Shown in pieces: positions 13,601-63,105 of a DNA stretch of 64,000 nt (positions are counted from its first letter, which is position 1; the number at the start of each line of letters is the position of its first letter). The stretch covers positions 2,232,001 to 2,296,000 of the forward strand of contig OZ316896.1 in assembly GCA_973895155.1 (NCBI GenBank). Reading direction: 5' to 3'. Both the position numbers and the translations under genes were made by a program. This stretch comes from Marsupella aquatica. Taxonomy: Eukaryota > Plantae > Marchantiophyta. The notes beneath the pieces were generated by a model, which searched no databases, was not told where the DNA came from, and saw only the letters and a list, made by a program, of their open reading frames with translations.

Positions 13601-14807
13601 GGGCACGGCTGCCATAAACCTTAACGCCGACGCGGTGACAATGCATTCCTTGTTCAGCATTCCAATACACGGAGAGCTCAGGCCTCTGCACATCATCAGT
13701 CCCCAATACCACATCTTGAGGAACAATGACGTGTTCGTCATAGACAAGGCGAGCATGCTGACACCCAAACTGTTGCGTTGCGTCTCCACAAGACTACACG
13801 AGACACTCCAAGATGAGGACCGCTCGTCCGACCCATTCCAAAATAAGACGGTCATCCTGGTCGGAGACATGTGCCAATTGCCTCCGGTTTGCACCCACCA
13901 CACCAACGACATATGCAAGTCGTGCCACCTCTTGTCCTCGCCATATTTTGAGACCATGCGGAAATTTCACCTCAGCACTGTGCTCAGACAGAGCACAGAC
14001 CGGAAGTTCATGGAGTTCCTTAACAACATCCGCACAGGCCTCCCTACCCAAGAATCAATCGATGAGTGCCTGGGACAATGTTACGTGTCCAAACAAGAAG
14101 CCCATGATTTCATCGACGCCTCGACGACCGTGATATGCACACATAGAGAAACAGTCGACAACTACAATGAACGGGCATTACGGAGATATTTTCCACGCCA
14201 AGAGATCGTGCCCGTCCCAATACTCACCAATGCCCCTTCAGACGAATCCACCCGGCCTTGGATACAAGATCCCTCCTTCCACACACTGACGAACGTTGCA
14301 ATCGGATGCAAGGTGATTCTCACACACAACATCGACCTCTCCAAGCAGGCTGCAAACGGCAACGGAGGAATCGTGGAGAAAATCACTACAGAAGTCGAAG
14401 GCAAAATGTCAATTTTTGTGAGAATGTCTTCCAACCACTGCCTCGTAAAGATCAACCGCACGGTTCACGAGAACAAGTTCATCTCGGGACAGCAAACCCA
14501 TCGGAAATCCACTTTCCCTCTCATGCTCGGATATGCCATAACAGGTCACAAAAGCCAAGGTTGTACACTAGCGGGCAAGGTCGTGCTAGAAATAAACAGT
14601 GCATTCACACCGGGACTGGTGTACGTTATGTTGAGTAGGGTCACAAATAGAGCATCCATGCGCATTGTTGGAGATCTTACGCCGCCGGACTTCAAAGTGT
14701 TCCACTTACCAATTCGTCGTGTTCAACAAGCAGATGTCGACCACCAAAGGCAACAAGGCAGCGAAGGCATCACAACAACAACGAGAAACAATGACAGGCG
14801 CAAATAG
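10683..14807 (+). pseudogene. Helitron Rep (HUH Y2 endonuclease)-PIF1 helicase, 1374 codons, 4 in-frame stops
   Basis: Five ORFs share one frame. N-terminal CxxC pairs. Rep motifs PHFFLTLTC, YELQGRRSLHAHTVLW, YLLKYAIK. PIF1 motifs GNPGSGKT, ID(K)ASML, VGDMCQLPPV, VLRQ, YAITGHKSQGCTL, VYVMLSRV. Stops at 10869, 11703, 12351 and 13311. Confidence 0.95.
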
Positions 14808-26867: not shown

Positions 26868-29236
26868 TTAATTCCTGGCAACAAGTGCCTCGACTGCAGT
26901 GATGATTTGATATGGTTGAACTACAGTGAGTTCTTCTAGTGGTCCAGAGTATGGAGTAGGCACATCCTGAGATGAAAGGCACTCGATGGGAGCATCAAGG
27001 TAGTCAAAAAAGTTCTCCATGATGGCGGCCCTCAGACTGGCACCGATTCCACCAGTCCGCATGCACTCCTCCACAATCAACACTTTGTGAGTCTTCTTCA
27101 CGGAGTTTCCAATCGTGAATAGATCAAAGGGCTTCAGAGAACGAATGTCGATAATTTCAGGGTCATAACCTTTGCTCACCAGGGTTTTTGCTGCCTGGAG
27201 CACATGATGTCTCATGCGTGAATATGTGAGAATGGTCACATCTGTACCGGGTCGGACCATTTCTGCCTCTTCGAGATTGCAGATGTATTCTTCATCAGGG
27301 ATGGTCTCCTTCAAGTTGTACAACAGGACATGCTCAAAAAGAATCACAGGGTTTTCACTGCGAATAGCAGCTTTCATGAGACCCTTTGCGTTGTAAGGGG
27401 TGGAGCATGCAACCAACTGCAATCCTGGAACAGACTGAAAATAGGACTCTAAACGTTGAGAGTGTTCTGCCCCAAGTTGCCTGCCCACACCTCCGGGGCC
27501 TCTGATAACACAAGGGATTGTGAATTGTCCACCCGAAGTGTAGTGCAACATACCACAGTTGTTGGAGATTTGGTTATAGGCCAGTAACAAGAAACCCATG
27601 TTCATTCCTTCAATAACTGGCCTCAATCCCGTCATGGCTGCACCAATTGCCATCCCTGTGAAAGAATTTTCGGCGATAGGAGTGTCGAGCAATCTCAAGT
27701 CACCAAATTTCTCGGCAAAGCCTTTGGTCACTTTGTAGGAACCACCGTAATGACCAACATCCTCGCCCATGACACACACGCGTGGGTCGCTCTCCATCTC
27801 CTCCTCCAAGCCCTCGCGTAAAGCTTCATAAAGGAGCAACTCGTGTCTGCATATGGGACGGCCATTAAGGAAGGTAAAGAGAAATGCGAACCAAGAGACA
27901 CGGAATAGACCTAGGCAATCAGTACCAATTTCATGACTTGACAAATCTCACAACTGAACTATGTCAGCTATTGTAAAAAATCTAAGGATGAAAAACGGTA
28001 ATGTGTGCAAGAAAGCTCGGAACTCACCCTGGGCCCTTGGCAGCGGTGCTTGCAGGCGCCTCTTGCTTAGTCTGCCCATAGATAGAACGAGAAAATACAT
28101 GACTACAGAAACTTGAGCGGACAACACATTTAGATCCTAGATCGGTGGAGGCTGAAAAAAATATGATGCAAGCATGGTATTTAGAAAGCTCATGGTGGAA
28201 CAAATTGCTGCCAAAATTCTCCAATAATCAAAGGAAAACATAGAGGTATTCCAAGCATAAACTACAATAGTTGATCGTCTAGGGACATACGGCAACAGCA
28301 TTGGTAGCAATTTTTGGAGTTGAAGGTTTCTTGGCTTGAGCTCCGAAGTTGACGGATTCGTCAACAGATGCTCGTAGAGCGATACATCTCCTTGACTCTG
28401 AGAAGCACACATTAAGAGTGAGTCCAAATTTTCTTCGATCAAGAGACATGAACAAATCCAATCGCTCACAGCGCGCATTGGTAAATTGGACAGGAACGAC
28501 CGAAGCACTGAGAACCAGTATACTCTTGCTAATCAGAAATGATTTCATCCAGACGTGTCATGAAAATAACGTTGAAGGAGCGCATCTATTCTGGGATCAG
28601 CCGCAGCACAGTCCATGCAGGGGGGTGGAAGTCTTGGTAAGACGATCAGAAGAAGAAAAAGTGAAAACATTCCAGCAGTGTTCAGGAAGCAGTGGACAAC
28701 TACTGAAGCCCATGGCACAGATATCTATCAAGCTTAAAGCATCCATGGTGCGGTGCTAGAATAGGACAACTCTCACAACAAGACGCATAGCCAACCTATT
28801 TGAAGAAATAAAAACATCCAAACCTCCACACTTGACACAATCTAGAGAGAATTCACGAGCCTTCATTTATTCTCCAACGAATTTAAAATCCAATCCCAAC
28901 TCTCTCAGCAAACCCAGAAACAGCACCGTGAGGAGAACAACTTCAAGACATTGAACTTAACTCCACTCCGCTTAGCAGATACAAGCGAAGTAACGAAAAA
29001 CCCACTCTACTACCCACGCATGAAGCAAACAACCTCACCGTCAAGACCAAAACAAGTTCCTAGCAGACAGAAAACCTACACACCACTTAGGTCAGAGACG
29101 AGATCATACTCAGGGCAGGCAGAGAGGCCGACGACGTCTGAATGCTGCATGCATTGAACGAAGACGACGCCGAGGAGAGCGGCACAGCAGCAGCAGCTGC
29201 CACGGCTCCGGACATAATCCCTTGCACCACCGCCAT
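26868..29236 (-). CDS. pdhB: pyruvate dehydrogenase E1 beta subunit, plastid-targeted (exons 29236-29110, 28397-28291, 28071-28028, 27846-26868; 418 aa)
   Basis: [37 protein letters not shown] and [13 protein letters not shown] are plastid/cyanobacterial-type E1-beta motifs. Three GT-AG introns with matching phases. Ala/Ser-rich transit peptide ([27 protein letters not shown]). Confidence 0.96.
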
Positions 29237-38215: not shown

Positions 38216-38959
38216 CCTTTTAAAACTTGTTAGAAGAGATTTGGAAAGATCTTCTCAATTATTCTAATATCTTTAGTTTTCATGATGAATTGAGACACTA
38301 GTGAATTTCTAAACATATATACTCCACCACTGGTAGTCCACACTTCCAGTTTTTTGAAAGTTTCTGAACAAGTAAGTATCATGTTTTGGGGATCATTAGA
38401 ACTGCTTGGATACACTTTCGAACCAACTTAAGATGGTCAAATATACTGTAAAATTGAGAGACATACATGTAAATATCATATAAAAACTAGCCCCAATTAC
38501 CAGTTCTTTGAAGGTGAATAGCGGATTGGACAATAAAAATATTACCAAAATATATTCTCTATTCATATTCTTTGAAGTTTAATGAAATGATAAAAACCTA
38601 TCATTTTAATAGTCATATATAGTAAACCATTCTCCTTTGTATGCATATCCTTCTTTGTATGCACATATGTTGTGGTGGGGCCATAGTGCCTATTTTTTGA
38701 ATATATATTTTAGAAATTATCACAAAAAACTTGCATCATGTATGAATTGACATACATCACACTCATGAGTTTTTTCCATGCACATGATGACCATAGAGTT
38801 ATGGTCTAAAGGTTTCACTCTAGACCTAAGCTCTTAAAAGTAGACTTCACTTGACACTTTTATAGTAAGATGAGGGCCTGTAAATTTCCCAAAAATGCTT
38901 TAATTAATTTTCTTGCCACAGTTCTGTACTTATGAAGGTCTATCTTGTACTTGTTACAT

Positions 38960-39440
38960 TTTACTCAACTACTGGACCACGGTTGCGTTCCCATTGGCTG
39001 TCACGCAACCATAGTCGCCCCGATCCCTATCCTTCACATCTGATGTTCAGCCTCGAAGTATTACAGCTCAAAATAATGCCAACATTCTGGTGTTGTTTCC
39101 CCAAAGAAAACCAGGGCTGTGACTTTGGCCCAGTTAGGGCCCAGTTAGGAGTTGAATTGGGTTCAAGTGGGGCCCTGATGGTTGCTTTGCACTTTGTGCT
39201 CAATAGGTGTTGGGCATGGCTACCTTAGGGCCATCTTGCATGTGCAAGGTCCTTTGATTTTTGGCCCTCAAATGAACCCGTGGCATCTCTAAACCAAGCT
39301 ACAAGCGGGCAGTCCTGATGGCGTCTTTGGAGGATATGCAGCCGTGGTCAATATTTGGGTTAAAAGTAACTGGATAAGGTTTGGGGGCCAAGGTTTATAA
39401 GAACGATCAGTTTCGGGGGGTAGTTTAGTAATATGCTGAA
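38960..39440. mobile_element. non-autonomous TIR element, inverted homologue of 52481-53012
   Basis: TTTCCCCAAAGAAAACCAGGGCTGTGACTT...GGGTTCAAGTGGGGCCCTGATGGTTGC is the reverse complement of sequence in 52720-52800. One TIR retained at 39391-39437. Confidence 0.7.
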
Positions 39441-40423: not shown

Positions 40424-42812
40424 ATGGGGGCCATACGACTGCAGCGCAAGGTGCTTCAAGCTGCCACTCTGGGGAGTGTGAAGCTCATGCGGACTCTTCT
40501 TCACACGTATGCGAGGCCCTTACGGAAGGAGCGAAAGAAGTCTCGGAAACGAGAGAGGGAAGACGACCATAAATTCGGTGCCCGAGAGTATAATAGGCAA
40601 AAGAAACGTGCTAGAAAGACAGAGCAGAGAGAAACTCGCAGGAGAGGAAACGATCGGAAACGGAAGGACTCAAAAGAAGGGTTTAATTGTGATACAGAAA
40701 GTGAGGATTCTGGAAATCCGCAATATGCAAGACATAGAGAACATAGCCAGTCCGGGATCGGAGGAAGTGGTCGAAAACGCAGGGATGTAGGAGAAGAGAA
40801 TAATCCGGATGGAGGGAGTGAGGACTTTGACGTAAGAGAGGGCTTACGGTCTGGACAGAAACGTGCCAGACGAGATGAACGGACTGAAACGACTAAAGAT
40901 GGTTCTGAAGAAGAGGACGATTTTTCTTCGCCGAGGTGAGCCTTAACATTCCCTGCTGTGATGAATGGTTATTGAAAGAGTAGCCCTCTGCTTTACTGCA
41001 TCTCGTTTTGGACTTCTGTGCGTAGTCACCGAGACATTGATTACGTAGGTTGAATTATATTGCTTCTTACCTTTGGGTTACCTGTTTTCTCCTGCTGAAC
41101 CTGTTTAGATGTTTTGCTGTATAATTCATTCAGTCTGTAAACAAGATATCGATTGTTACACTTCCGTGTCCTTTGGTTTCAATTCTTGCTCTCTCTATAA
41201 AACGGATTGCTTTCAATTCTCCGGTTGTTTTTTGCTCGGGAGTTATGTTTGGAATGTGATTTTCCTCTCTTGTCCTTGATGCCCGTTTCGTCCAGCAGTG
41301 CCAGAGGGAGCTCAGGAAAGGATTCATATGACGGGTCAAGGACTGACAGTGACATAGAGGAGGTCGGGTCTCGGCGGGGAGGACGAAAACATGCTCCTTC
41401 TGGAGAGACGGTAAGGAGCATCGTTAACTGCCGCGATGCAAGGGGTTTGAGTCCACTTCACCTCGCCTGCCAGGCAGGCTCAGAGGACTTAGTGAAGTAT
41501 CTGATCTCAAAAGGGGCCAGTGTGCATGTGCGAGATCGCAAAGGAAATACCCCGCTTCACACAATAGCAAAGCTGGGGCCAGCTTCTATCTTAACTATTC
41601 TGCTGGATGCTCATGCTGATATGGAGGCTTTTAACGACCAAGGTATCACACCTTCAGATCTCCTTGACGAGAAAGAAGCAGCCGCTCGACGTCGGGAAAT
41701 GTTGAAGGACCAGAGAAAGTGGTACGGTCACCTAGCTGAAGAATTGAGTGACAATGAGGACACTTGGTGGGGTATGGAGTGGGGTGAGGATGAGCGGCCG
41801 GATTGGGAAGACCCTATTCTAGAAAGGATGGCGGAGAGCAGGCAAGGAAGGGGCTTGTACAATGAACCTTTCAGTCTGAGAGACTTTCTTAAAGCAGAGA
41901 AGAATAAGACCCAAAGTGACCAAGGGAGAAAGTCAAATAGAAAAGGAAGGCATACCGCCAGACCTTCCGAGGATTTTAAAAGCAGAACCGAAGCAGTCAT
42001 AGGTCCTACCTTGAGAGTCCCATTTCCAGCTCCGCGAAGTTACAGTCAGCGGTGGAAGACATTCTCGGAGTCTTACAATTTGTGTCTCTCATACTCAAGT
42101 GTGCCCTTTCCTGTCGAAGAAGGCAAGGAAGACACCCTGAGAGAAGTGCTTTTGCAGGGAATCGATCCTTCTATGCAGAGAACTGCATTAAGGAAAGAAA
42201 TGCTAAGGTGGCATCCAGGTACGCTGAGCCAAGCGAGATACTTAAGTTCGAGTTCTTTACAATCTCTTCACGATTTCTATCTTTTGGAGCAGCTTCTTTA
42301 GTTGTCGTTCCGCTAGTCTTCTGTATTACTGCTTTTCGTTTTCCCTGATTGTTCATAGAGATCCTCTTAGGTAGGGTGAGCCAATTACAAATAATTGTCC
42401 TTGCGTTTCAAACCTCTGTCCATAGAAATGGTTTGTTGTTTGAGCTTGTTCATATGTTTTGACGAGCAACCCATTAGTGTTGGCCCGACCATTAGTTTTT
42501 GTTTGCTGTTCTGCGCTGCTGATTTGGAGCTGTGACAGCATCTATTACTGGAATTGTATGCAAACCATGTAGTAGTAGCAGGCGGTTTAGCATAGGAGGG
42601 AGACGATGTGGGGAATTGGGCATGCATGCTGAGTGGCCTGTCCTCGAAATCTGCGTCAAACTAACACTTTTGCATATGCTGTTTCAGATAAGTTTCTGCA
42701 GAAGTGGGGAGTAAAGCTTCAGGGCCCTGATCAGGACCGGATAGTGGCTCGTGTGAATGAAATATCTGAAGCGATACATCAGCTGTACAAAACAGTGACT
42801 GTAGGGAAATAA
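40424..42812 (+). CDS. NF-kappa-B inhibitor-like protein 1 (NFKBIL1)-like ankyrin-repeat protein (exons 40424-40935, 41296 or 41299-42218, 42688-42812)
   Basis: Ankyrin repeats ([18 protein letters not shown]), W/acidic linker, then YSSVPFP...LRWHP|DKFLQKWG...[12 protein letters not shown] completed across a phase-1 intron. This is the C-terminal WHPDKF signature of the NFKBIL1 family. Confidence 0.85.
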
Positions 42813-43407: not shown

Positions 43408-45479
43408 TCTGTATATATCCCGTCAGCAAAATAAACGTGTGTGCTCCCTTCATTGCACTGCGCTCTTTGCATTGATGTTGCCAATAATCAGTTTACTTCA
43501 CCTTCAGCAGCAGGCAGTCGTTACGAAAGGAGAGGACAACATGAACTTTTGGCCAAGTTCACTTTTAATATGTAGCCTTCCCACAAATCCTGCCATTGCT
43601 TGCAGTATAGGATGAGAACTTGCCATCCTGGCCAAAACCATGACTCTCATTTGAATGAGCTTCAACCTGTTTTGTTTCTTGATGTACTTATGTGGGGACA
43701 CACCCGCATCTCCAAAACTAAAACTCAAGAAAATTAAAAACATCAGGAGTAAAAAGTTTGCGTAGTCCTTGCGAAATGAGAGATAATTCCTTTCTGCATT
43801 GTTTCTCCTCTTAGTGTTGGCCTTAACATTACGTCTGGGGCTACACAATTTCAAGAAAAAGTTATTTTTAATTATCCAAGTTTTAACTTACTGGATCCAA
43901 GTTTTGTCATGGCTAAGTAGTGGCCGTTTAACTACAGTAGCCTACTCCTTGTGACACATGTGATTGTAAATAATTAGGGCAGTAGTTTGTGGCTCGCCTC
44001 TATCCTAGACAGTCTCTCCCCATACAAAAAGAAGTACTTGTAATATTAGGGGACTGAGGGTGGTGTTGCAATATGCAGACTGCATTTTTTTGGGTGCATT
44101 TACAAACAGAATACTTGTAGTATTTGTAATATTAGGGGACTACATGGTTGGGCTCGACTAATCCACACGGAATGCACTTATCCATGCTGCACTTATACAC
44201 TGCACTAATCCACGGAATGCACTTATTCACACTGCACTTATACACTGCAGTTGTTCCCGCACTTCATTCCTCTTTTCTTCATTTTCTTCAGTCTCGTGTT
44301 AGGGCTGGACTGGAGCTGACTGAATTTCGTGGACAGAGATTGACACATTTCGTTGCTTTTTTCTTCAGCTCACACGCTTGTGCTCACTCTGGTTGAGTGG
44401 TTGCTCGTTCAATCCGGCCATCCCCACAGCTTTCTGTTTCTTTCCTACGGAGACGTTTCCGCATCGTTCTGTCATAGGAATCCGAAGAATCTCGTGCCCA
44501 CGAATGGACCTTCCTGTGTAGGATTTTCATGGAGAAATGGGCTCAGTAATTCGTACTGCTGCGGTAGTCGGTTGATCTTTCCGTTGAAAATTCGTTTCTG
44601 GTTCCATCTTTGCATTCTCTCGGTGAATCTGTTTGAAACCTGCCATCCATCCTATCCATTCACCGAACGGGGTCAGTCCATGAGTCAATCAACGATACGA
44701 ATCGGTTCGTGGGAGTGATCTTGGGGCCCCGAGATTGAAATTCATCGATCGATCAAATGATTTGTTAGTGCAGTTTTGGATTGGTTTTGATCTATTGACG
44801 GATGTTGAATCCACTCTATCTGGGGTTTTGGGTTTTGGCACATATATCTACTGCGGATCACTTGGTGGGTGACGATTTGAATTCGGGATTCAGGATCATT
44901 TTGTAGAGTTTGGTTCTAGGCGTGGTTTTATCAAGAGTATTTTTGGAGGGTTGTGAGCTAGGAGAATTTTGAGGGAAGTAAACACAGCTACGCTATTGAC
45001 TCGAATACTAGATGCAGCAGAGTCCATCATTCTAGGACATGGATTACAGGGATGTAAATTTCCCAGCCACTGAGTAAGAAACGCCTGTTGTAGGAATCAA
45101 TGATTTCTCCAATGCCTGCAGTACCGGCATTAGGAACGTAGGGGCAGGTTAGTCACCGAATTGAGTGAGCCAACGCTGCAGCCCATCAAATGATTTGATT
45201 TTGTGGAACTTCCTCTCTGATGATTAGAATGACAATGGCGAATAATGACAGCCATTCTGCGCATTGAGATGATCGGTCGAACGTAGGGTTTGGAAAGACT
45301 GGACAGTGGTGAGAGCTGCCTGCCCTGGCTGGCCCTGTAGTTTTGCTTCTCGTTCTCAGATAGTCAGTGCTGATAGTTACTGAAGTGCCTCTACTGTAGC
45401 GCAGTTGAAATTAAAGGGAGCCATTCCATGTCGGAGGTAGTGGCACAAGCAAGCTGGCGCAGAAGGAAGAAATTCTGGG

Positions 45480-46943
45480 ATGCCACTCCAGGCAGATGAT
45501 GAGGACTCTTCTGAAGAAGTAGGAGGAGGGTCCAACTCCATGGATTTGTATGACATGCTTCTGCTATGGGCGCATATGCAGGGTGGGCATTTGGACACAG
45601 ACATGGAGTCTATGTCTACCTTGGAGGCGCCCATAGCTGCAATCTTCGTCGTCCTCGTGGCAGCTTACTTCGGCTCATTCTGCTGTCCAGCAACCGGCGA
45701 TTGTAGCTGCGACGGCAGTATCGGCAGCAGCAGTACTGCGCAGACCACTAGCGATTCAGCAGCAGGAGCAAACCCTACAGTTAGGAAGCTCTGGAAAATT
45801 CCTCGGCGGTCCACATATTGGGACACAATGGTGGAAGGGCAGAGGATGTGGAATGCGGACGAGGGAGTGAGGGATTCACTTTGGCAAGCACAGTACCGAA
45901 TGTCATACCGGACATTCCAAGCTCTCACAGCTGAGCTCAGGCCTTTTATCGAGAGGTCCAGCAACACCGTCCGGGACCCGATAGAGTTGGACCGAGTGGT
46001 GGCAATGGTGCTGCACCGCCTTGCATCTGGCCTTCCTCCAAGCACCATCGCCACCTTATACAATGTTGGCCCCTCCACCGTGACCAAGTACACAAAGCAG
46101 ATCACAGAGATTCTGGCTTCCAGGGACAAGCTCTACTCCAAGTTCGTGAGCATTCCTTCCGGGGCGAGGCTGGCGAGCACAATTGCCAAGTTTCAAGACA
46201 TGACGGACATTCCAAATATATGTGGGGCCATCGATGGGACGCACATCAAGCTGTGGAGGAAGCCTCGGCTGCAAGATGTGCCGAAATTCTACTGGAACAA
46301 GTACTACAAGTTCTACAGTGTGCTTCTGCAAGGGGTGTGTGATGCTGACAGAGTGTTTTGGGACGTCTGTTGCAACGCTCCCGGAGGCCTCCACGACGAA
46401 GTGCACTGGAGGTCGAGCAGTCTGTGGTACCAGCTGAAGACCGAGAGCGTTCTGGAGCAGCCAATTGCTCTGGGGCATGGCCGGACGGTCCAGCCTGTTC
46501 TCGTGGGTGATGTGGACTATCCCCTTGCCCCTTTTTTGATAACCCCATTCCAGCAAGACTCCGGCGGCGTTCCCGCCGCCGCAGCAGCAGAGATGCAGGA
46601 CGATTTCGACGTTGCACTTAGAACGGCTCATTCTTGCGTGGAAAGCGCATTCGGAGTTCTGAAGAAAAGGTGGGGAATCCTGGCTAATTTGAACATTGGG
46701 CTGCAGTATGCTCCTCAGGTGGTGGTGGCCTGCTGTGTCCTCCACAATTTCTGTCAACTGGCTGGAGAAAAGGAGCCTGAAGACCACATTGACGTCCACC
46801 TCAACAATAACAGTAATAATTCTAGTGGACCCCTTCACCAATCTGTTCCTGAAAATTTGGCAGAAGGAATGGCTGGGAGAGCATGTAGAGAGGTCTTGTT
46901 CAGCGGGTGGGCGGAACGAAGAAGTGGATACAGGGGTTATTAG
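45480..46943 (+). CDS. HARBI1/ALP1-like Harbinger transposase-derived nuclease (DDE_Tnp_4), 487 aa
   Basis: YRMSYRTFQAL, LHRLASG HTH, GAIDGTHI, LLQGVCD, GGLHD, VGDVDYPL, VESAFGVLKKRW, ACCVLHNF. Uninterrupted ORF with acceptor-like TTCTCAG at ~45359 upstream. No TIRs seen. Confidence 0.9.
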   Translation: MPLQADDEDSSEEVGGGSNSMDLYDMLLLWAHMQGGHLDTDMESMSTLEAPIAAIFVVLVAAYFGSFCCPATGDCSCDGSIGSSSTAQTTSDSAAGANPTVRKLWKIPRRSTYWDTMVEGQRMWNADEGVRDSLWQAQYRMSYRTFQALTAELRPFIERSSNTVRDPIELDRVVAMVLHRLASGLPPSTIATLYNVGPSTVTKYTKQITEILASRDKLYSKFVSIPSGARLASTIAKFQDMTDIPNICGAIDGTHIKLWRKPRLQDVPKFYWNKYYKFYSVLLQGVCDADRVFWDVCCNAPGGLHDEVHWRSSSLWYQLKTESVLEQPIALGHGRTVQPVLVGDVDYPLAPFLITPFQQDSGGVPAAAAAEMQDDFDVALRTAHSCVESAFGVLKKRWGILANLNIGLQYAPQVVVACCVLHNFCQLAGEKEPEDHIDVHLNNNSNNSSGPLHQSVPENLAEGMAGRACREVLFSGWAERRSGYRGY

Positions 46944-52480: not shown

Positions 52481-53012
52481 GGGTTTTTTGCTAACCTACC
52501 CCCCAAACTGATCATTATTACAAACCTGCCTCCAAAACTGAAATATTTAGTACTGACCCCCAAATGTTGACCAGGCTGTGTTCTTATTGGCTGTCAAGTA
52601 ACCAACTTCACCTGCATCAACTTTCACACAGTCTGTAGCCTTGTTGGGGACTAAGGTGCAGCCACGTCCATTATCTATTGGGCCAAAAAAGCAACGCAAC
52701 CATTGGGGCCTGAAGTGCAGCGCAACCATCAGGGCCCCACTTGAACCCAACTCCTACCAGAGCCCAAGTCACAGCCCTGGTTTTCTTTGGGGAAACAGCA
52801 CCATAATGTTGGCATTTTTTTGAACTGTACCTAAGAGTTCAGGGCCAAACATTACAATCATGTGAAGGGCAGGCAATGGGACAGAGGGATTGTGGTGACT
52901 ATGGTTGCTCGACAGCCAATGGGAACTCAGTAGTTGAATTAAAAGTAACAGGAAAAAGTTTTGGGAACAGGTTTGTAATAACCATAAGTTTGGGAGATAG
53001 TTTAGTAAAAAG
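52481..53012. mobile_element. non-autonomous TIR element (~530 bp)
   Basis: ~45-bp imperfect TIRs TTTTGCTAACCTACCCCCCAAACTGATCATTATTACAAACCTG / CAGGTTTGTAATAACCATAAGTTTGGGAGATAGTTTAGTAAAAA. Second copy at ~39 kb. Confidence 0.75.
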
Positions 53013-53198
53013 CTGTTGTCGACCCTTTATATTTTCCAGGGTTTGGGGGCATTATGGGCTCTCTAGGAGTATTCACCTCTACTTTTACTAATGTTAGAAA
53101 AATAGTAACATCTCATAGCCTTTAGTGTAGTACGGTCCAGCCTGTTTCCCGGGCCTTATCGGCAAAAATACCTTCTCAAAACTCAAGCCATATCTATC

Positions 53199-53357: not shown

Positions 53358-53594
53358 CTCAGGTTCCTTTGTCATATTGCTGTCGTGACATATAGTATCG
53401 TAGCCATAGTGTATCAAAAACATACAAGTCGCCGGCAAGGCATATGTGCAAGCTGCTAGCAACCAACATGCATAGAAAAGTCCAATCACATTCACAAGTG
53501 CCAAGAAAAAGCAAATGAAGTGGTATGTACGTAGTGGAGGTGTAAACCTCTGTACCCCCCCCAGACCACAGCCAAAAGGAGGGCTGAAGAAAAT

Positions 53595-53750
53595 TCAGGT
53601 AGCACGTGGAGCACAGGAAGGGCAAAACCATAACCCTTCTGGCACCTGGGTAAGTTTAGGCCGAAGGCAGAAAAGATGGTACCCTCCATTGCAATTGTCA
53701 CACAGCAGCATCTGGTCAGCATCATCAATTCGCAAACACACTTTGCAAGG
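53595..53750 (-). other. PHD finger at the integrase C-terminus
   Basis: CKVC..DDADQMLLCDNCNGGYHLFCLRPKLTQVPEGLWFCPSC is an intact C4HC3 PHD. Confidence 0.92.
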
Positions 53751-56700
53751 GTAGTCCACAGGTGGAATCCAAGTAGAAGTCACAATGGTGGGATCCAGGT
53801 TAGGCAGATGACAAGGGGCGCAATTTTTGGCATTGTCAGCAATTGTGCGCCCATCTGCCCCTTGTAACTCTAGCACTCCAGACGGTCGAATAGCTTTAAC
53901 CCTGAGAATAGTACGACTGGTAGAGGTGTCCAGGGTGTCGTTAGCTTGCCGCTGCAAGTACACAAAATCTCCCACTTCAAACTTCCTGACCTTGGGCTGA
54001 AAAGTGCCCCCTCGTGTGTGTGCATAACGCAGTGTGTCCCTGTGCTGTGCGATGGCCAAATTCTCCATGGCCATGGGCATAACCCTCCTGAATAGGGCAG
54101 CCCTCTCAGAGATCACATCAGACCAAGTCACAGCTGAATCCAAGTCTACCACCTGAAGCATGTGAGCAGCAATAGCAGAAGGTGGAACTGGGTGACGACC
54201 GAACAACAAGAAGTAGGGAGAAAAGTTAGACAGTGATGCATGTCTGGACATCCTATACCCCATGGCAATGTAGAGTAAGGCCAGGTCCCAATCCTTCTTG
54301 TTTTTGGTGAGGCAAATCTTCCGGAGACCCTTCTTGCATGTCTAAACCATGCGCTCTGCCAAGCCATCTGCCTGTGGGTGATCTTGTGATGTCCGGCGAT
54401 GATCTATGAGGGCCTGATCAAGCAGCTCCTGGAACTCTCCTCTAAACTCTGAGCCCTGGTCAGTGAGACATTCTGCACAAGCTCCAAAGCGGCTGAGAAC
54501 TTGTTGCAGGAATGCCTGGCTGGTGCTACGGGAGGTCTTATCCGGCAATGCCACAAGTTCTATCCACTTGGAGAAATGCTCTATCATGATCATGATGTAG
54601 AGATTACCCCGAGACATGAGGGGTAATTCTCCAGCCAAATCACATGACCAGCAATAAAACATGCCCTAAATAGGGAGTGGATGAAGTATGGGTTGCTGAG
54701 ATGTGAAAGAAGTCCTCACCCTATCACACTGTTCACACCGGGCAATAACATCTCGAACCTGGCCATGCATGCCTCTCCAATGATAATGAGGGACCAAAAG
54801 GCTGTAAGTCCTCTTAACGCCAAAATGACCAAGCTCAGAATGTACCTTACGGATAAGGCCAACCCTCTCATGAATGGGTGGAACCACCACTTCCCTGTCT
54901 GGCAAGCAGCGCACGAGATGATTTCCCTTCCACAAGTAACGCTTGGACCTTTGCTGAATTCGGTCTCTCTGGGTTGCAGTAACATGTATGGGGTACTCCC
55001 CATGCTGCGAAAATCTCATAGTGTCGTTGTCCTCCCATATGTCCACCACAGGTTGGTCAACAACGTAGCATGGCAGCAAAGCAAGATAGGTAGATGCATG
55101 AAATGTAGGCAGGATGGAAACCTGGTCAAAATCCTGCCGTGCATCTGAGGAATCATCAGAGGCAATCAAAGGGCTGTGGGACATAGTGTCAGCATTTTGA
55201 TGTGTCACACCAGGCCTATGAATTACCTCAAAATCATACTCCTGGAGTATGAGCGCCCAACGAGCAAGCTTGCCAGTAAGCTTGTCATTGGTCATCAACC
55301 ACTTCAAGGGCTGGTGGTCGGTGTAGAGAACAAACCTGGTCCCATAGAGGTAGGGCCTGTAATGTATGACAGCCCACACAACAGCAAGGCATTCACCCTC
55401 ATAAGAAGAATAATGACTCTCTGCCTGATTATTGCTCCTAGATGCATAGGCAATGACGTACTCTTTACCTTCCTCATCATGCTGGCCCAGAATGGCATCA
55501 ATCCCAAGGGCACTCCAATCTGTGTGTAACATAGAGACCTTGCTGAAATCAGGTCTTCTCAGCACTGGGTATTCTGAGAGCTTCTCCTTCAAGTGGCAAA
55601 TGTTGCCTTAGCATCTGTACTCCATGTCCAAGTCACATTCTTTTTCAACAAAGCATACAATGGGTGTGCAATGGTACTGAAATCTTTGATGTAGATCCGG
55701 TAGTAATTGTACAACCCAATAAAACTCCTCAAAGTGTGAACATCGGTAGGAGTGGGCATTTCCAAGATGGATACCACCTTGGCCCAGTGAGCCATGGTTC
55801 CATTGGAAGAATGCGGTGCCCAAGGTATACTTCTGATCTGACAGCAAATTCACACTTCTTGGGGTGTATCTTTAGGTTCACCTTCTTAAGTCTCATGAAT
55901 AGCTCCTCAAGGTCAAGTAGAATGATGCTGGTCAAATCCTTTGCTGTGGACCAACACATCATCAATGTAGCATTTCATAAACTCAGCACCTTGAAGAACC
56001 TAGTCCATGACTCTTTGAAAGAATATGGGCACATTCTTCAAGCCAAATGGCATCATCAACCACTCCCATAGTTGGTTACTACCATGGAAAGTTGTTTTCT
56101 TGCGATCCTTTGCAAGCAGCAAAATCTGGTTGAAGCCTTGCCTTAGATCCACAAGAGTGAAGATGTCTGAGTCTCCAATGCTGTCAAATAACTCCTCTGG
56201 CCGCGGCATGGGGTACCTATCCTGGGGTGTGACCAGGTTCAATGGCCTGTAGTCCCCACACATGCGCTTCTCTATCCACAATCCACTGGAATCCTTCTTT
56301 GCTGGCATCATTGTAGCTACTGCAAAATCTGATGTAGATGGTTGAATAAGACCAGCTTCATATAACTCTTGGCACCTCTCATCCACCAGCTGCCACTCAT
56401 GCTTACTCAAACGATGTCTCCGCCTGAAGATAGGTGTTTCATCAGCCAACTCAATGGAGAACTGCATAGTCGTGCACTTACCCAAGTCCTTCATAGAGAA
56501 AGCAAACACGTTCTCATGCTTGAGGAGCAAATTCAGCAACTGGTCCTTCTGTCTTTTACTCAAGTGGTTGCCCATGATGAATGTGTAGTTGGCAACACTA
56601 GGAATAGGACCTGATGTACTCATGCTTGAAGAGCTAGAAGTGCCAGCCTCTCCACTGTCCAAGCTGCTAGCATGCTGCTGATAAGGTGATGAGGCCTCTC

Positions 56701-56929
56701 CAAGGCCTGTTGTACCTGCTGATCTGGGTTGGTCCACACCATGAAACTCAGAAATATTGTCAGCCACGTTACAAGGGACCTCCTCCCTCCCAACACTTGG
56801 ACTGAAGCGGTGAGTGTTGAATAGAGGTAAGTGCACCTGGTCTGGATGCCATGTAGCAGCACCATGGAGTGGTAGAGCTGGAACTCCTGATGTTGGATGA
56901 ATGTACATCTGAAAAAGAATGCAAGTGAC

Positions 56930-57860
56930 CAGAAGCCAAGTGAGAGCATTGAGATCCATTACCCTGCCAAGTAAAGCATTCCTGGCCAGCCTGGTGATGT
57001 GGGTGTGGCCTGTAGTACCGGATTGGAAGCCCATAGCCCGTTCTCTCTCCTCAGGACTAGGTTCATCCCATGTACCGGTAGAATGTCGGTAAACCAGGCC
57101 AGGACCATCACCCTGAAAAGCATGTGCACCTGGAAAGGACACAAATGTAGGCCAAGCAGCACGGGGCTGTCCAATGGTATTGGCTGGATACCAAGGTGCT
57201 GGCTCTTGCCGTGTAACTGGTTGTTAGGATCCAAAATCTGGTCCACTGTGAGGTTAGTGTCCCTGGATGTGTGGTGAAGAGCTAACTCCAACAAGGAAGG
57301 TGGTGCAAGGTTAGTCCAAAAGTTACGAAGACGATGTGCATAAGAACCACAGTGCACTGCATCAATGAGAAGGGGTGGTCCCAAGTAGTGTTGGACCACA
57401 CTAAAATCCTCTTTGACCTGTGGACGCTGGTCAAACTAAGATGGAGTATTCTCAACAATATAACCAACAGCAGGATAAACGGATTGAGCCCAGGTGAGAA
57501 TCTGAACCAATGCTGTGAAAAGGCCAGAATGAGAATCATGCAGTCCAGCACCGTGACCAGCAGTTGAAAACCCTTGGCATTCCCAACCAGCTATGATCAA
57601 ATCAAGGGAGCCAAGAAGGGTTAAGTGCCGGTGCTGGACAAGCTGGATATCTGGAGGAAAGAAAGAAAATGCAGATTTCCATGCACTGTGTGGAAACTGC
57701 TAGGGAAATCGCTCTGAAAATTCCAGCAGACGGGATTCAGCCACTTGCCTTGCACCTGAATCAATATCCACATAGATGTACTGCTTCACCACCATGCCAG
57801 ACTGTAGGAGAGCTTCCAGGCCTATAGAAATGCCACCAAAAAGCTCAAGCAATGTAAGGC
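56930..57860 (-). pseudogene. DNMT3-like C5-cytosine DNA methyltransferase domain inside the Gypsy polyprotein
   Basis: Motifs in order: I LELFGGI, II YVDID, IV DLIIAGWECQGFS, V SGLF, VI IVENT, VIII AHRLRNFWTN, IX EERERAMGF, X RLARNALLGR. TAG stops at 57700 and 57436, one frameshift near 57210. Confidence 0.9.
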
Positions 57861-58998
57861 CATCTGAAGGAGGAGTCCATGTAACTGGTGCGCTCAAGAT
57901 TGGGGCTATTGGTTGGCCATTGTGCTGCCCAAGGTCCTCAAATTTGCGCAATGCAGCCACCAAAGGTCCATGGGCTGCTTGGAGTCGTTGTACCACCTCT
58001 GGTTGATGATCCACGTTGCTGGAAAGTGCTACTATATGTGCAGCAGCATGTGCAGTAACCACCTCATCATCATCCTCCTCAATCCAATCCTGCAATGGGT
58101 GGTTGACATAAGTAGCTGTGTGCATTGCTTTCAACACACAGTGGTGAGCCATAGGTGTATGGGCACCATGCAAATCAAGTGGAATGTAGCCCAAGTGTGA
58201 GCCATCCGTATGCCAATCAACTCTGTAGTATGCATGCTCATGCCAGTTGTCAATGGTAAAACCTGGTGGGAACAAAGTCTCCTGGCCAATGAGCACATCA
58301 TACGTAGTGGCATTGGTAACCAAACATCTGACTCGGAAATGCAATTCCTGATTTGTACCTCCATTAAAAGTGAGAGTGAGTAAAGTAGAACTCTCACCCA
58401 ACACATCCTCCACAGTGCCACTAGCAGTCCGAATGTGCCACCTGGATTGTTGTAAATGATCAGTCAGCAGTCCCATCTTCTTGGCAAACTGAATGCCCAA
58501 TATCACTGGTTGAGCGCCTGTGTCTAGCATGACCACCTGAGGAGTGTGACCCTCCAACTTGACCGCTGAATTCCTGTTGTCAACAATGGCAATGGTGGTG
58601 GAAACTAAAGTCCTATCACTAGGCAACACTTTTGGCAAATGATGAGGTACCTTGTGAAGGGAGTTAGTGTCCACGGTCTTCCCACTCAACTGCATAGCCA
58701 GGAAAGATGGAGCAGCATGACCAGAATCAAGTGTAGCTCTGGTCACACAATCTGCAGCAATACTGTCATCTCTACCACTGGAAATTGGTACTAGGATAGC
58801 TAAACCAGTTGAAGCATGTAATGGAGAAGAAGAAGGTTCAGTATGTACATGAGATTGGATCTCCAAAACCGGTGTCACAGGGGCTGAGGAAGAATGCAGT
58901 GAACCCTCTAGCGCTCTGATGACAGCTCTAGCATCCAGTTGTAAATCATGGCAACTGAAAAGTGGAGTTGTAAGAATCCTTTGTGCCATACCGGAGGT

Positions 58999-59082
58999 GA
59001 AATGCTCAAGCAGCTCAGGAGAAACAACTCCCTGTGAAATGAAATGCTCAAGCAGCTCAAGAGAAATAACTCCCTGTGAAAT
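58999..59082. repeat. in-frame 42-bp duplication in gag
   Basis: Encodes ISQGVISLELLEHF / ISQGVVSPELLEHF. Confidence 0.9.
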
Positions 59083-60191
59083 GTCAACAGCACCTGGTGG
59101 TGGAATGGATGTAGCTACAGCTCCCTCCCCCCTCGCCAACAAGGTGCGCTCTTCAGCAAGTGTGAGTGGCTGAAAAGATTGGGGCATGACAGCCCGAGCT
59201 CCCCTGGCTCTAGTCATAGGACTGACAGCAAGACCATCAGCCTGTACAATGCGGCATGTGGGAGCAATACGGGAGGCAGCACTGGCCTGCTGGTAAGCAA
59301 AATAGGAAGAGCATAATGAATCTGAAAATTCTACTATGAGGCCAGGCTGTGGAGCAGAGGACAGCACACACTCACCCATATGAGCATCAAATGGCAAGCC
59401 ATAGAAAGAGCGGGGTAGAGGTGCTGAACTGTCAGTGGTGCCTGGGCCAGGGATGGGTTGCACGTGACCAGCCGGTTGAGAAGGACCAGCAGAGGCAGTT
59501 GACTTGCCTTTGATGTTGGCAAGTTGGGCACGTAGGGACTCAACCTCATGAGTCAGAGACTGGAGTTGAGTTGCCTGTGCATTGTGAGCCTCCTTCTGAG
59601 CTGGTTGCTTCAGTTGCTGCTTGGGCAATTTGTTGGCTCCGGGTGCTTTGCCACTGGAAGGAGGAGCAACTGAGGCAATAGGAGCCCTCCTAGCTGGTGG
59701 GGGAGTGGAAACAGGAGCAGGATGAGTGGCCTGTTGTCGTAGCTGCTTCCTCTCTGGGAATTTGGCAAAACAAATTGCCTCCAAGTGACGCACTTTCCCG
59801 CAGAAATCACAAGACAGGTCCTCAGCAACAATATCACATTCATTAGCAACATGGTGACGGACCAAACGAGAAGTGTGACCACACTTCTCGTTTTGCCCAC
59901 GGCGAAAAAAGTTTCTAAGGCAAAAAAGTCTTGGATATGGAATTAGTATTCCCACTAAAAACTAGTTTTTCGAATTGAAAAAATGGGAAAAATTGACACG
60001 AATATGAAGATGGGATACGGCGTATTCCATTTTGGATCCAACCGTGGAATTCCACCAAAAAAAAAACGCAGTAAAAGTGCCGATATTGGTTTACCCAACA
60101 AGAATATTCCAAAATGATTCTTCTCAACGGTAACATTTAACCGACTGCGATGCAACTGCAGTCAAATACTAACCACGGTCAGTAAGAAAAC

Positions 60192-60318
60192 TATAAATAG
60201 GAGATCAACTCTTGAGAATTTTACGCTCATTTTTTCTCGCTCTGTATACTCTTAGTCTCGACAAATGCACACCGTCTATACAAACTCGTATTCCCCGAAA
60301 ATCAGTTTTGACGAATAG
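60192..60318 (+). promoter_or_regulatory. TATA box and non-coding first exon (unit A)
   Basis: TATAAATAG 60192-60200; donor AATAG|GTGAG at 60319; acceptor CTGAT..TTTCGCAG 60838. Confidence 0.6.
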
Positions 60319-60347
60319 GTGAGAATCTTCCTCAAAATGGCGAGGAC

Positions 60348-60745
60348 GAATCCCAAATGGGATACGCCGTATCCCATTTGGGATTCAACCCTCAAATTTC
60401 AAGTTTTCGTTTCACATTAGCTAAAAAAGGAGGTTGGATGCGAAGTGGGATACGGGGTATCCCATGTCGCATCCAACCTCCGAATATGAAGTATCGTAGA
60501 CTCCAAATGTCAAAACCTCAAAGTTGAATGCGAAATGGGATACGGCGTATCCCGTTTGGGATTCACTCTTCAAATATCCAGTTTGTTTTCTCTTTAGCTA
60601 AACAAGGAGGTTGGATGCGAAATGGGATACGGGGTATCCCATGTCGCATCCAACCTGCAAAAATAAAGCATCTTAGACCATAAATGTCAAAACCTCAACA
60701 TTGAATGCGAAATGGGATACTGCGTATCCCGTTTGGGATTCACTC
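60348..60745. repeat. palindrome array A: 5 hairpins, 87-90 bp period
   Basis: GGGATAC-NNN-GTATCCC centres at 60367, 60455, 60545, 60632 and 60722. The first is a 39-bp palindrome with perfect 19-bp arms (60348-60386). Spacers alternate, giving a ~177-bp higher-order unit. Confidence 0.92.
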
Positions 60746-60948
60746 TTCAAATGTCCAGTTTTGATTGCCCATGTGGTATTTACCTAGAGTTTATTTGAAT
60801 GATGGGAAAAACCTTATGGATTACTGATTGTTTCGCAGGCGAAGTTCAACTGAACTGTACGCACTGAAGCTCTTGCTGCCTTTCAGTGACCGACACCCAC
60901 TCAAGCTTAAGCTTTCCTTGATAAACAAAGTTTTCTCTTGTGAGTCTC

Positions 60949-61275
60949 ATGGCGGTCCAGAATCAAAACCTTGAGAAACATGCTCGTCGATTGTATAAGC
61001 GATTAGTTGCACTCAAAGTTCTTCGTCCTGGATTAGGCGTGCTATGGACTGGAGGCGTGGATCCACATGATAGTTTGAATCCACTCCGAATAGAGTTTTG
61101 TGAAAAAAATGAGGATGGAGTTCCGATTCGGTCGAGGATATGTTTGAGTGGTTGTCTGCACTCTGTTAATTCTTCTTGTAACTATTGTCGTGATGCCCAA
61201 AACAAATATCATCGATTGGCATATTTTTGTTGTCGGATTTGGAACGAAGATCCTTGGGTTAACTTATCGCGTTGA
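60949..61275 (+). CDS. unknown Cys-rich 108-aa protein (unit A)
   Basis: Open frame after the array-containing intron with CLSGCLH...CNYC...FCC. No family recognised. Confidence 0.45.
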   Translation: MAVQNQNLEKHARRLYKRLVALKVLRPGLGVLWTGGVDPHDSLNPLRIEFCEKNEDGVPIRSRICLSGCLHSVNSSCNYCRDAQNKYHRLAYFCCRIWNEDPWVNLSR

Positions 61276-61450
61276 ATTTTCTGATTAGTGTGTAAGTGTT
61301 TAGGTGAACGTTCTTGGGTCAAACATTTTGTGAATATATTTTTATTTTGATCAAAGAAATAAAATCAGTTTTTCCATCACTATTTTGTAGGTTGTTGAGA
61401 AAGAGCTCACCATCTCATTTATTACTCCAGGTATCCACTCTTATTTTGGA

Positions 61451-62307
61451 ATGGCAGTCACTGAGAACCCTGTCTTTACAAGGTTAGCGATGTCATTCGA
61501 CAAAGAGAAGAAACAAATTCAACAAAAAAGTGGCCAAAGGGAATCCGGATTGCTTTTGGATGGACTTCCTGACGAGATTGTTGAAACGTTCATTTGGCCC
61601 CTCGGGGGTCTCACTATATGGGGACCTCCCCATCACCTGCGACGTTTTTAGGCCTCGGACCCCCTAAAATGTAAGAAAAAAATATTATTTTTTAACCCCT
61701 ATAAAGTTGGAATTTTCCAAGAATATTCCAAAAATTGGATTGAAAAGACCCTAATGTTCTTATAAGTCTCAAAATTGAATTTAAAAGACCCTATTGTTCT
61801 TCTACAAAAATTCTTAAGTCTTCCCTTAGAACGAATAAAATGACCCTATCCTTTGTCGCACGTGATATGCCATTTTTGTGGAAGTGAAACCCCCGAGTTT
61901 GGCCCATTTTGAAAGTTTGTTGTATAGAGGATGAGTTTGATTCCTCCAAGAACCAAGCTGATGAAAGATTGATGCGATTAAAAACCATGGTGTGGCTTGG
62001 ATGCACCTCCAAGAAATGGAACCAGCTCGTAATTTGTACACGAGTCTGGGGTATTCTTAGACTAGCAAAAAGCCAGCTTGAGGAAGTAAATGAAATGCTG
62101 ACAAGCATTCCCAATGGAAAACCCCTTCAGAATGTCCATATTGAAGCTTTTGTTAGGATGGAAACACCGAATCTTCCTCCAATCAATTTCTTAGGTTTAT
62201 TTTCAAGGTCTGACCTAAATCGATTTCAAGAAGACTGGCACAATCTTGAGAAAGATGAGCAAGCGAGGCTCTTGGAAATGTATGGGGAAGCTTCTAGTCT
62301 GGTTTAG
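61451..62307 (+). pseudogene. F-box-like gene (183 aa when restored) interrupted by a MITE
   Basis: LLDGLPDEIVETFIWP joins in frame to ILKVCC...LGCTSKKWNQLV once 61601-61905 is removed. Confidence 0.75.
61601..61897. mobile_element. 297-bp MITE, 15-bp TIR, 8-bp TSD
   Basis: CTCGGGGGTCTCACT / AGTGAAACCCCCGAG (1 mismatch). TSD TTTGGCCC at 61593-61600 and 61898-61905. Confidence 0.92.
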
Positions 62308-62575
62308 AGCCATCTTGAATGGGCTCTTTGTAAAGACTCTTTTTAAGAATATCAACTTATTTTTTTTTGTGGCACAATTCCGAATGAATAAAGAGTTACC
62401 CGATTCGCTACGCATAAAATCTATTTGGTTGAATACAAGGACTTGGGGATATGCCTTATCTCTTGTCCCATCAAGAAAAAAATATATACAGACATCCGGA
62501 CTCCAACCCTATGCTTTTGGATACACATTATCGCCTGTGGAAACCTTATCGCCTGTGGATATGAAGGTGATAAAG

Positions 62576-62711
62576 TATAAATAGAAGTGCCTGGTCAGAA
62601 AAAATTACTCTCATTTCTTTTTCTTCTCAACTTTGTTTGCCTCCGCGTTTTTCTCGGGCCGCAACATCTCTATAGCTTTTCGTATTTGCTCGAATCAAAA
62701 CCAAAAAATAG
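62576..62711 (+). promoter_or_regulatory. TATA box and non-coding first exon (unit B)
   Basis: TATAAATAG 62576-62584; donor AATAG|GTAAA at 62712; acceptor TTTTTCAG 63140. Confidence 0.6.
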
Positions 62712-62751
62712 GTAAAACCTGAAGAAACTCTCCCCTCCTTGTTTGGTTAAT

Positions 62752-63105
62752 TGTTGAATCCTGAGAGGGATACGCCGTATCCCCATTTGTATTCAACTCT
62801 ATTATTTGGCCTTCTTTTCAATTGAATACGAGATGGGATACCGCGTATCCCATCTTGCATTGAACACCCTCTTTTTAGTCTTCCATCCAAACCTCCTCGC
62901 TCTTTCTTGACTTTGAATACGAACTGGGATACCGCGTATCCCATTTCGCATTCAACTCCCTCTTTTTCGTGCTTTGCATCAGACTCGAGGCAATTGTTGA
63001 GGTTGGATGCGAAGTGGGATACCGCGTATCCCATTTCGCATTCAACTCCCTCTTTTTCATTCTTTGCGTCAGACTTGGCAATTGTTGATGTTGGATGCGA
63101 AGTGG
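62752..63105. repeat. palindrome array B: 4 hairpins plus a half site
   Basis: Centres at 62775, 62843, 62934 and 63024 (spacing 68, 91, 90). Half site TTGGATGCGAAGTGG at 63091-63105. Confidence 0.92.

Follow-up and report, generated by a model that had tools for sequence, protein, structure and literature searches.

Why do transposons carry their own silencing enzyme? The question has stood since 2018, and the sole Gypsy example tested showed no activity. It is raised again by a 64,000-nucleotide stretch of the liverwort Marsupella aquatica (GenBank assembly GCA_973895155.1, contig OZ316896.1, positions 2,232,001 to 2,296,000 of the forward strand), which we call the window. An earlier note, made from the letters alone, described a Gypsy retrotransposon here with a DNMT3-like DNA methyltransferase in frame between protease and reverse transcriptase (RT). 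Six-frame reading, Pfam, profile and fold all agree with that description. The window element is almost certainly a decayed, 5'-truncated copy of a Gypsy retrotransposon family that encodes a DNMT3-like methyltransferase in its polyprotein. Gypsy-DNMT3 elements are now placed in liverworts and a moss, as well as in chlorophytes, where the domain order is a second one.

An enzyme inside the polyprotein

The element lies on the minus strand, as do all of its features given below. Six-frame reading, the list of open reading frames (ORFs) and Pfam give the order Gag remnant, zinc knuckle, aspartyl protease, C5 methyltransferase, RT, RNase H, integrase and PHD finger. The Ty3/Gypsy order of Pol, protease-RT-RNase H-integrase, is present, and the methyltransferase (56930..57870) sits between its first two members. 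The methyltransferase shares its frame with the protease on its upstream side and with RT on its downstream side. The ORF at 57700-59961 holds the Gag remnant, the zinc knuckle, the protease and methyltransferase motif I (near 57840). The next one, 57436-57699, matches PF00145 DNA_methylase (E 9.4e-07, 29 bits against a cut-off of 22), the search that the earlier note had proposed. Motif VIII is in the ORF at 56959-57435, and the ORF at 56000-57223 has ERAMGF and LARNALLGR before it runs in frame into RT (PF00078, E 3.7e-09). The two TAG stops and one frameshift that had been read through in the methyltransferase are located at 57700 and 57436 and near 57225. Motif VIII (AHRLRNFWTN) is followed in order by ERAMGF and LARNALLGR, and DNMT3A is the best PDB match.

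What kind of methyltransferase is it?

With its stops read as X, the methyltransferase piece matches DNMT3A, 3B and 3C exclusively among 29 PDB sequences. Scored with a profile built from 58 relatives, DNMT3A (E 7e-28) comes out ahead of DRM (domains rearranged methyltransferase; 4e-17) and M.HhaI (3e-08). The alignment of this family profile to DNMT3A covers motif I, motifs IV to VIII and the ERAMGF/LLGR region. The unbroken domain of a Calypogeia relative was modelled with AlphaFold2 at a pLDDT of 95.7. Foldseek with this model gave DNMT3 (DNMT3A/B) throughout among the matches listed, with template modelling scores of 0.66-0.71 by query length. By profile and by the predicted fold of the Calypogeia relative, the methyltransferase is DNMT3-like.

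Two other affiliations were considered and rejected. Motifs I to X are unrearranged in the six-frame reading of the window domain, without the circular permutation of DRM, and DRM scores below DNMT3. For a phage origin the best matches are 22-27% identical at E 3e-9 or weaker (20 listed of 119 records). PHROGs gave generic methyltransferase families as matches, and the Atlas put a streptophyte cluster first with two phage clusters at equal score, which is a lead only. Host plant DNMT3 is marked by DUF3444. Pfam did not find this domain after the methyltransferase in the window element. Homologue searches gave 75 matches among 2041 candidates and 118 among 3959; by precomputed Pfam none of either set has DUF3444, nor does any of the 42 further relatives scanned (150 listed).

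The catalytic Cys of motif IV (near 57579), the Glu of motif VI (near 57453) and the Arg-x-Arg of motif VIII (near 57333) are all present in the window domain, with ERAMGF near 57043. The 58 aligned proteins all share the Glu of motif VI and the first Arg of motif VIII, and for the Cys of motif IV and the second Arg conservation is at least 90%. The Phe and Gly of motif I, which binds S-adenosylmethionine, vary hardly or not at all among chlorophyte and streptophyte lineages.

The same fusion elsewhere

The earlier note listed a one-off capture among the results that would refute it; the presence of the domain in relatives from distant genera and in 80 metagenome loci argues against such a capture. 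A search of 50%-identity representatives returned 131 proteins at E <=1e-30 and 504 at <=1e-10. The protease precedes the methyltransferase in relatives from Calypogeia fissa (76% identical over the domain), Marchantia polymorpha (43%), Closterium (38%), Klebsormidium nitens (36%) and Mesostigma (34%; identified by JGI code). In a decayed protein of Sphagnum fallax (29%), Gag, methyltransferase and RT follow in that order. The C. fissa protein (P0077) carries Gag, protease, methyltransferase and RT in a single ORF, so the Dnmt3-type domain is intronless inside a Gypsy polyprotein there as it is in the window. Another relative, P0116, reads from Gag through the PHD finger in a single ORF of 2358 aa. 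Unbroken natural domains include Calypogeia CAM6101866.1, with Glu-Cys in motif IV, and Marchantia Mp4g09160, with Pro-Cys.

Marchantia polymorpha has six Gag-protease-methyltransferase ORFs (P0115, P0303, P0304, P0310, P0311 and P0312, annotated as hypothetical). They are 95-98.5% identical, lie on chromosomes 2, 4, 5 and V, and all carry motifs I, IV (as Pro-Cys), VI and VIII and ERAMGF. Function can therefore be tested directly in a genetic model with published methylomes, and counts of bryophyte DNA methyltransferases may need revising. In several lineages, Marchantia and Klebsormidium among them, the ORF terminates 11-150 residues past the methyltransferase, which places the domain within the Gag ORF. 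A second order, RNase H-methyltransferase-integrase with a PHD finger after, is found in P0019, P0027, P0147, P0148, P0176, P0185 and many proteins without names. Every named relative with this order is a chlorophyte, among them Chlamydomonas eustigma, Monoraphidium, Haematococcus and Chromochloris (by JGI code).

A metagenome scan gave 590 pattern matches, of which 440 were confirmed and 80 loci (L001-L080) kept. These were selected via the methyltransferase and so are blind to copies that lack it, and some are one insertion filed twice. Further element domains surround the methyltransferase in window order in 79 of the 80, while L040 has the methyltransferase only; exactly eight domains are found in 22. 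The window at 53600-58670 is about 70% identical to these loci in DNA over 5 kb, and the RT is 84% identical in protein with synonymous sites saturated. They lie on land-plant contigs whose flanks hold PPR-DYW and NAC genes. Among the relatives examined the methyltransferase domain is always in a retroelement context or present as fragments. None of the 42 further relatives scanned (150 listed) has a host chromatin domain besides the element's PHD finger.

Have the methyltransferase and RT travelled together?

Both trees are quick, unrooted and built without host DNMT3. Of 158 domains, 93 entered the methyltransferase tree, which omits two thirds of the unnamed rows with the chlorophyte order. 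The RT tree has 50 rows and omits half of the unnamed rows with that order. In the methyltransferase tree the window groups with Calypogeia and five unnamed rows (SH-aLRT 100), separate from the Marchantia group, and all 38 RNase H-methyltransferase-integrase rows are on a single branch (99). The two domain orders are apart in the RT tree as well (94), and the neighbours of the window there are the same (98). This agreement implies that the domain has long travelled together with RT. It must be noted that the K. nitens domain is homologous at 36%, but the trees are unrooted and the RT tree does not contain the K. nitens row.

Between the window and related loci the methyltransferase has a dN of 0.25, a saturated pS of 0.74 and a dN/dS of about 0.09. 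A ratio near 1 would have counted against the earlier note; between lineages it is well under 1, with dS saturated. The ratios elsewhere are 0.065 for RT (dN 0.14), 0.052 for the integrase, 0.082 for the protease and 0.20 for the linker. Among the related loci themselves, where decay after insertion is included, dN/dS is 0.38 for the methyltransferase and 0.34 for RT. At depth the methyltransferase is clearly under purifying selection, but less strongly so than RT.

Abundance and CpG content

Contigs of four sequencing runs, which may include the window's own source, were aligned to the window. Over the element the contig depths add up to 27,000-98,000 in run X1 and 46,000-189,000 in run X2, against 34 and 87 in a unique flank bin. 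The element is thus about a thousandfold deeper than unique flank in both runs, although depth sums are not copy numbers. The methyltransferase bins have a depth of the same order as RT, integrase and the other domains. This indicates an abundant family that has largely retained its methyltransferase.

The observed/expected (o/e) CpG ratio is 0.26 in the element and 0.63 elsewhere in the window. We considered this depletion as a footprint of self-methylation and rejected it. In 11 related loci the coding span has 0.32-0.40 and the flanks 0.15-0.54, so the depletion is no signature because the flanks are mostly equally depleted. Methyltransferase-free retroelements were too few for a control.

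The ends and the decay of the window copy

The Gag remnant with its zinc knuckle (58700..59850) has lost its 5' part. Gag homology ceases at about 59850 (tblastn of P0077 and P0003 begins at 59853), so the 5' end is gone, and loose contig ends lie behind 59847 in runs X1 and X6. From about 59847-59850 a different repeat (59848-63100) interrupts the gag gene. It has arrays of a unit of about 90 nt with a palindromic core at 60001-60754 and 62756-63056, surrounding ORF remnants without Pfam matches.

The remaining domains are as follows. The retroviral-type aspartyl protease (MLDTGA) is at 58273..58563 (PF13975, E 3.6e-07; PF13650, E 9.7e-06). The RT (YIDD; PF00078) spans 55810..56450 and has one stop and two frameshifts, and RNase H is at 55236..55595 (PF17917, E 1.3e-36). 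The integrase at 54170..54887 combines an H2C2 zinc finger with a DDE core and contains two stops (PF17921, PF00665, tblastn). The PHD finger, absent from the earlier note's description, is C-terminal at 53613..53747 (PF00628, E 2.4e-12). It is followed by a run of 8 G (53555..53562) that resembles a polypurine tract and matches related loci in position, and then by a terminal repeat, B, of about 175 bp with a CACGACA end (53381..53554). Equivalent copies of B are found in related loci, and a drop in depth and loose contig ends at 53379-53381 mark its limit. The element had been placed at 53595..59897. Its identity stood and its bounds did not, with one end reaching on to about 53381 and Gag homology stopping at about 59850.

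Besides the two stops in the methyltransferase, TAG occurs downstream at 56000, 54666 and 54342, and besides its frameshift there are others near 55920, 55800 and 55590. With five stops, four frameshifts and a gag cut off, this copy is dead and unable to make the polyprotein. At sites in run X1 where many contigs differ, the window has A/T where the contigs have G/C at 135 and the reverse at 42. Such an excess would be the pattern expected of an old methylated copy.

Related loci show what the ends of the family look like. Fifteen have the layout A-coding-G run-B-A-B and five A-coding-B. Repeat A is about 290 bp, starts with TGTCATG and has a TATA-like box, and B is about 176 bp with the CACGACA end (L002, L016, L043, L056 and others). 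The outer ends are thus a TGTCATG start and an ACA end, in keeping with the TG...CA ends of Ty3/Gypsy LTR retrotransposons. A 4-bp target duplication is present in 15 of 20 rows with both ends; counted by distinct insertions, this is 12 of 17. What follows the 5' A is unlike a tRNA primer site, judged by eye. At the inner B|A joint two ends of integrase type meet head to head across a 2-nt spacer, an arrangement that in our reading resembles a two-LTR (long terminal repeat) circle junction. The window copy has the G run and a single B, ending at 53381. A second copy of this 3' repeat was looked for within the window and none was found, which fits the absent 5' end. In run X1 some contigs pass from B into letters beginning like A and others into varied flanks. 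The related loci do not have the classical two equal LTRs around the coding region; their layout is split and DIRS-like.

What does the methyltransferase do?

We argue that the methyltransferase of this liverwort Gypsy family is, in working copies, likely released by the protease and likely methylates fresh cDNA, so that new copies would arrive pre-marked. We hold this whole explanation to be rather more probable than its alternatives combined, by no means certain. From what is known of retrotransposon biology, the Gag-Pol polyprotein would carry the methyltransferase into the particle with RT and integrase. The element protease would cut it free, and the released domain would meet the cDNA. 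Residue conservation and the activity of SymbioDIRS-Dnmt3 suggest that it would methylate cytosines, probably CG, on the new cDNA. The new copies would arrive already marked, and the likely gain is that they would be quiet and tolerated. The solved PHDs nearest to the element's finger are those of CHD4, WSTF, BAZ2B, KDM5, ATXR5 and UHRF1, which are mostly readers of the unmodified H3 tail. The integrase-linked finger therefore likely reads the unmodified histone H3 tail too and would steer insertion to silent chromatin. Given the identity of the element, we see the case for the cDNA-methylation step taken on its own as evenly balanced.

Several results weigh against this explanation. The canonical motif IV of a C5 methyltransferase is a Pro-Cys dipeptide, and in the PDB comparison DNMT3A reads GGSPCN. 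The window has GWECQ, which retains the catalytic Cys and replaces the usual Pro by Glu. Of 158 domains, 89 have Glu-Cys, those of the window clade among them, and 44 have Pro-Cys; the other 25 have something else or are unmatched. KnitGypsy-Dnmt3, the related element of K. nitens, gave no methylation in yeast. For variants of the related loci that occur in at least eight copies, dN/dS for the methyltransferase is 0.41, which matches the linker and exceeds RT (0.28) and integrase (0.27). CpG depletion does not discriminate cDNA methylation from its rivals.

The best surviving alternative is that the domain is retained but transfers methyl groups barely or not at all, serving as a DNA- or chromatin-binding module that shields the cDNA or aids integration. 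The Glu in motif IV, the inactivity of KnitGypsy-Dnmt3 in yeast (in the sections of PMC5890265 available) and a methyltransferase that evolves faster than RT (dN 0.25 against 0.14) all speak for it. Against it, the Cys, the Glu, the Arg-x-Arg and the motif I Phe and Gly are all but invariant in chlorophytes and streptophytes. Pro-Cys is kept in the Marchantia and Klebsormidium relatives, and the fold is complete in the predicted model. We consider this alternative unlikely.

One can also imagine an active enzyme that works chiefly on host chromatin, whether its target is the insertion site, another copy or invading DNA, and so adds to de novo methylation or antiviral defence. The PHD finger does resemble histone-tail readers. 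Where the ORF ends 11-150 residues after the methyltransferase, the enzyme would be made with Gag, and the six Marchantia ORFs are near-identical. An antiviral role has been proposed for transposon methylases in the part of PMC6338049 consulted. Against this, the domain is always in a retroelement context or in fragments, and no relative of the 42 has a host chromatin domain besides the PHD finger. The moss host enzyme DNMT3b already covers de novo CG and CHH methylation, according to the accessible text of PMC6453930. We find this scenario less plausible still than the non-catalytic one.

That the window records a one-off or recent capture of a host DNMT3 gene, a chance nested insertion or an assembly chimera, as its broken state might suggest, is very improbable indeed, for the same fusion is in named proteins of several distant plant and algal genera and in the 80 metagenome loci, DUF3444 is missing from all three sets of relatives, and the methyltransferase and RT trees agree that Calypogeia and one shared set of unnamed relatives are the neighbours of the window.

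A wider reading would make Gypsy-DNMT3-PHD a single ancient green-plant lineage that predates the chlorophyte-streptophyte split. The methyltransferase would have shifted between two positions in Pol, replication would run through split repeats of an unusual kind together with a DDE integrase, and the enzyme would be paired with an H3-tail reader much like animal DNMT3. Copy number in bryophytes would be very high, and the family would be an overlooked source of de novo methylation shaping the host methylome. Taken jointly, these propositions are doubtful.

Known systems

The window element belongs to a known kind. A Gypsy-borne Dnmt3 in K. nitens was described by de Mendoza et al. 2018 (PMC5890265, consulted in part), who proposed cDNA methylation, so the element type and that idea were already published in 2018. 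As that paper describes it, KnitGypsy-Dnmt3 has DIRS-type repeats with Gypsy domains in the layout A-coding-B-A-B. The split-repeat layout of our related loci supports their membership in this kind. Both place a Dnmt3-type domain, intronless and unrearranged, inside a Gypsy polyprotein, and both show DIRS-like repeats and purifying selection. The kinship with the Klebsormidium retrotransposon enzyme that the earlier note suspected is seen directly in K. nitens KFL_013780020 (P0194), 36% identical over 319 columns and with the Gag-protease-methyltransferase order. There are differences. The window family is in a land-plant host and has very high read depth, whereas K. nitens is said to have fewer copies than Symbiodinium (same source, in part). 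Motif IV is Glu-Cys in the window and Pro-Cys in Klebsormidium. In P0194 and 4 close relatives the protein stops 11-13 residues past the methyltransferase, while that of the window continues into RT. The PHD finger of the window element has 0 occurrences in the main text of PMC5890265. The yeast result for KnitGypsy-Dnmt3 is called inconclusive there, and human DNMT3B failed in the same system.

The DIRS-borne domains of the same partly available paper, SymbioDIRS-Dnmt3, methylate CG de novo in yeast. They resemble the window family in a Dnmt3-type domain in Pol, A-coding-B-A-B repeats and proposed cDNA methylation. SymbioDIRS-Dnmt3 is a DIRS element with a tyrosine recombinase, while the window family encodes a DDE integrase and shows 4-bp target duplications. 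Activity is demonstrated for the former and predicted for the latter. Host DNMT3 of non-flowering plants (PpDNMT3a/b, as given in the text seen of PMC6453930) shares the methyltransferase class and motif order but has a C-terminal DUF3444, whereas the window family has a retroelement domain in which none was seen. EpiLTRs and DAM-LTRs, as the portion consulted of bioRxiv 10.64898/2026.05.21.726589 presents them, are likewise LTR elements with a DNA methyltransferase and a chromatin-reading domain. They have DAM, a chromodomain and a DNMT4-sister enzyme in place of the DNMT3-like enzyme and PHD finger of the window element, in which Pfam gave no DAM or chromodomain match. Set beside the window by description, Gypsy-7a_cRei of Chlamydomonas reinhardtii is a green-lineage Gypsy polyprotein with a PHD finger, but a methyltransferase is not among its domains as listed in the available part of PMC9940879.

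The earlier note knew of no well-characterised land-plant elements of this kind, and no land-plant copies are reported in the literature searched, a coverage outside which most subscription journals lie. The proteome set of PMC5890265 took in Physcomitrella and Selaginella; Marchantia and Sphagnum are absent from the files of it that were searched. According to the text seen of PMC6338049, green algae and charophytes have methylase-encoding transposons but land plants such as tracheophytes do not, an absence that it puts down to loss following the move to land. The preprint 10.64898/2026.05.21.726589 and PMC12344493 cite such elements, in the passages available, as streptophyte. Because both write 'streptophytes', bryophyte copies may already be in their trees; one supplement of PMC12344493 was searched and had no match for such elements. 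None is reported in the portions searched of PMC6453930, PMC10952607, PMC6317226, PMC9940879 and 10.64898/2026.09.17.752431. The Marchantia gene ids had no match in the literature searched, and the excerpts on the REXdb lineages Chlamyvir, Tcn1, Phygy and Selgy mention no such methyltransferase. What looks new is the occurrence in bryophytes and chlorophytes, together with a second domain order, the PHD finger, the abundance in this liverwort and a set of Marchantia ORFs in which function is testable.

Other features of the window

The host had been read as a land plant, and a host ankyrin gene at 41201-42301, NF-kappa-B inhibitor-like 1-like, is in accord. Its identity is 80% with Calypogeia fissa, 48% with Marchantia polymorpha, 44% with Riccia and 39% with a lycophyte, which makes the host a leafy liverwort akin to C. 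fissa yet distinct from it. Another host ORF at 26868-27947 has a transketolase domain and is presumably pyruvate dehydrogenase E1 beta. A short element resembling a miniature inverted-repeat transposable element, with 55-nt inverted ends, occurs at 52485-53015 and again, inverted, at 38944-39438. Helitron remains (Helitron_like_N, PIF1 helicase) at 10872-14807 are without CpG depletion (o/e 1.0). An unbroken 500-aa Harbinger-like DDE_Tnp_4 ORF at 45441-46943 is possibly a domesticated transposase.

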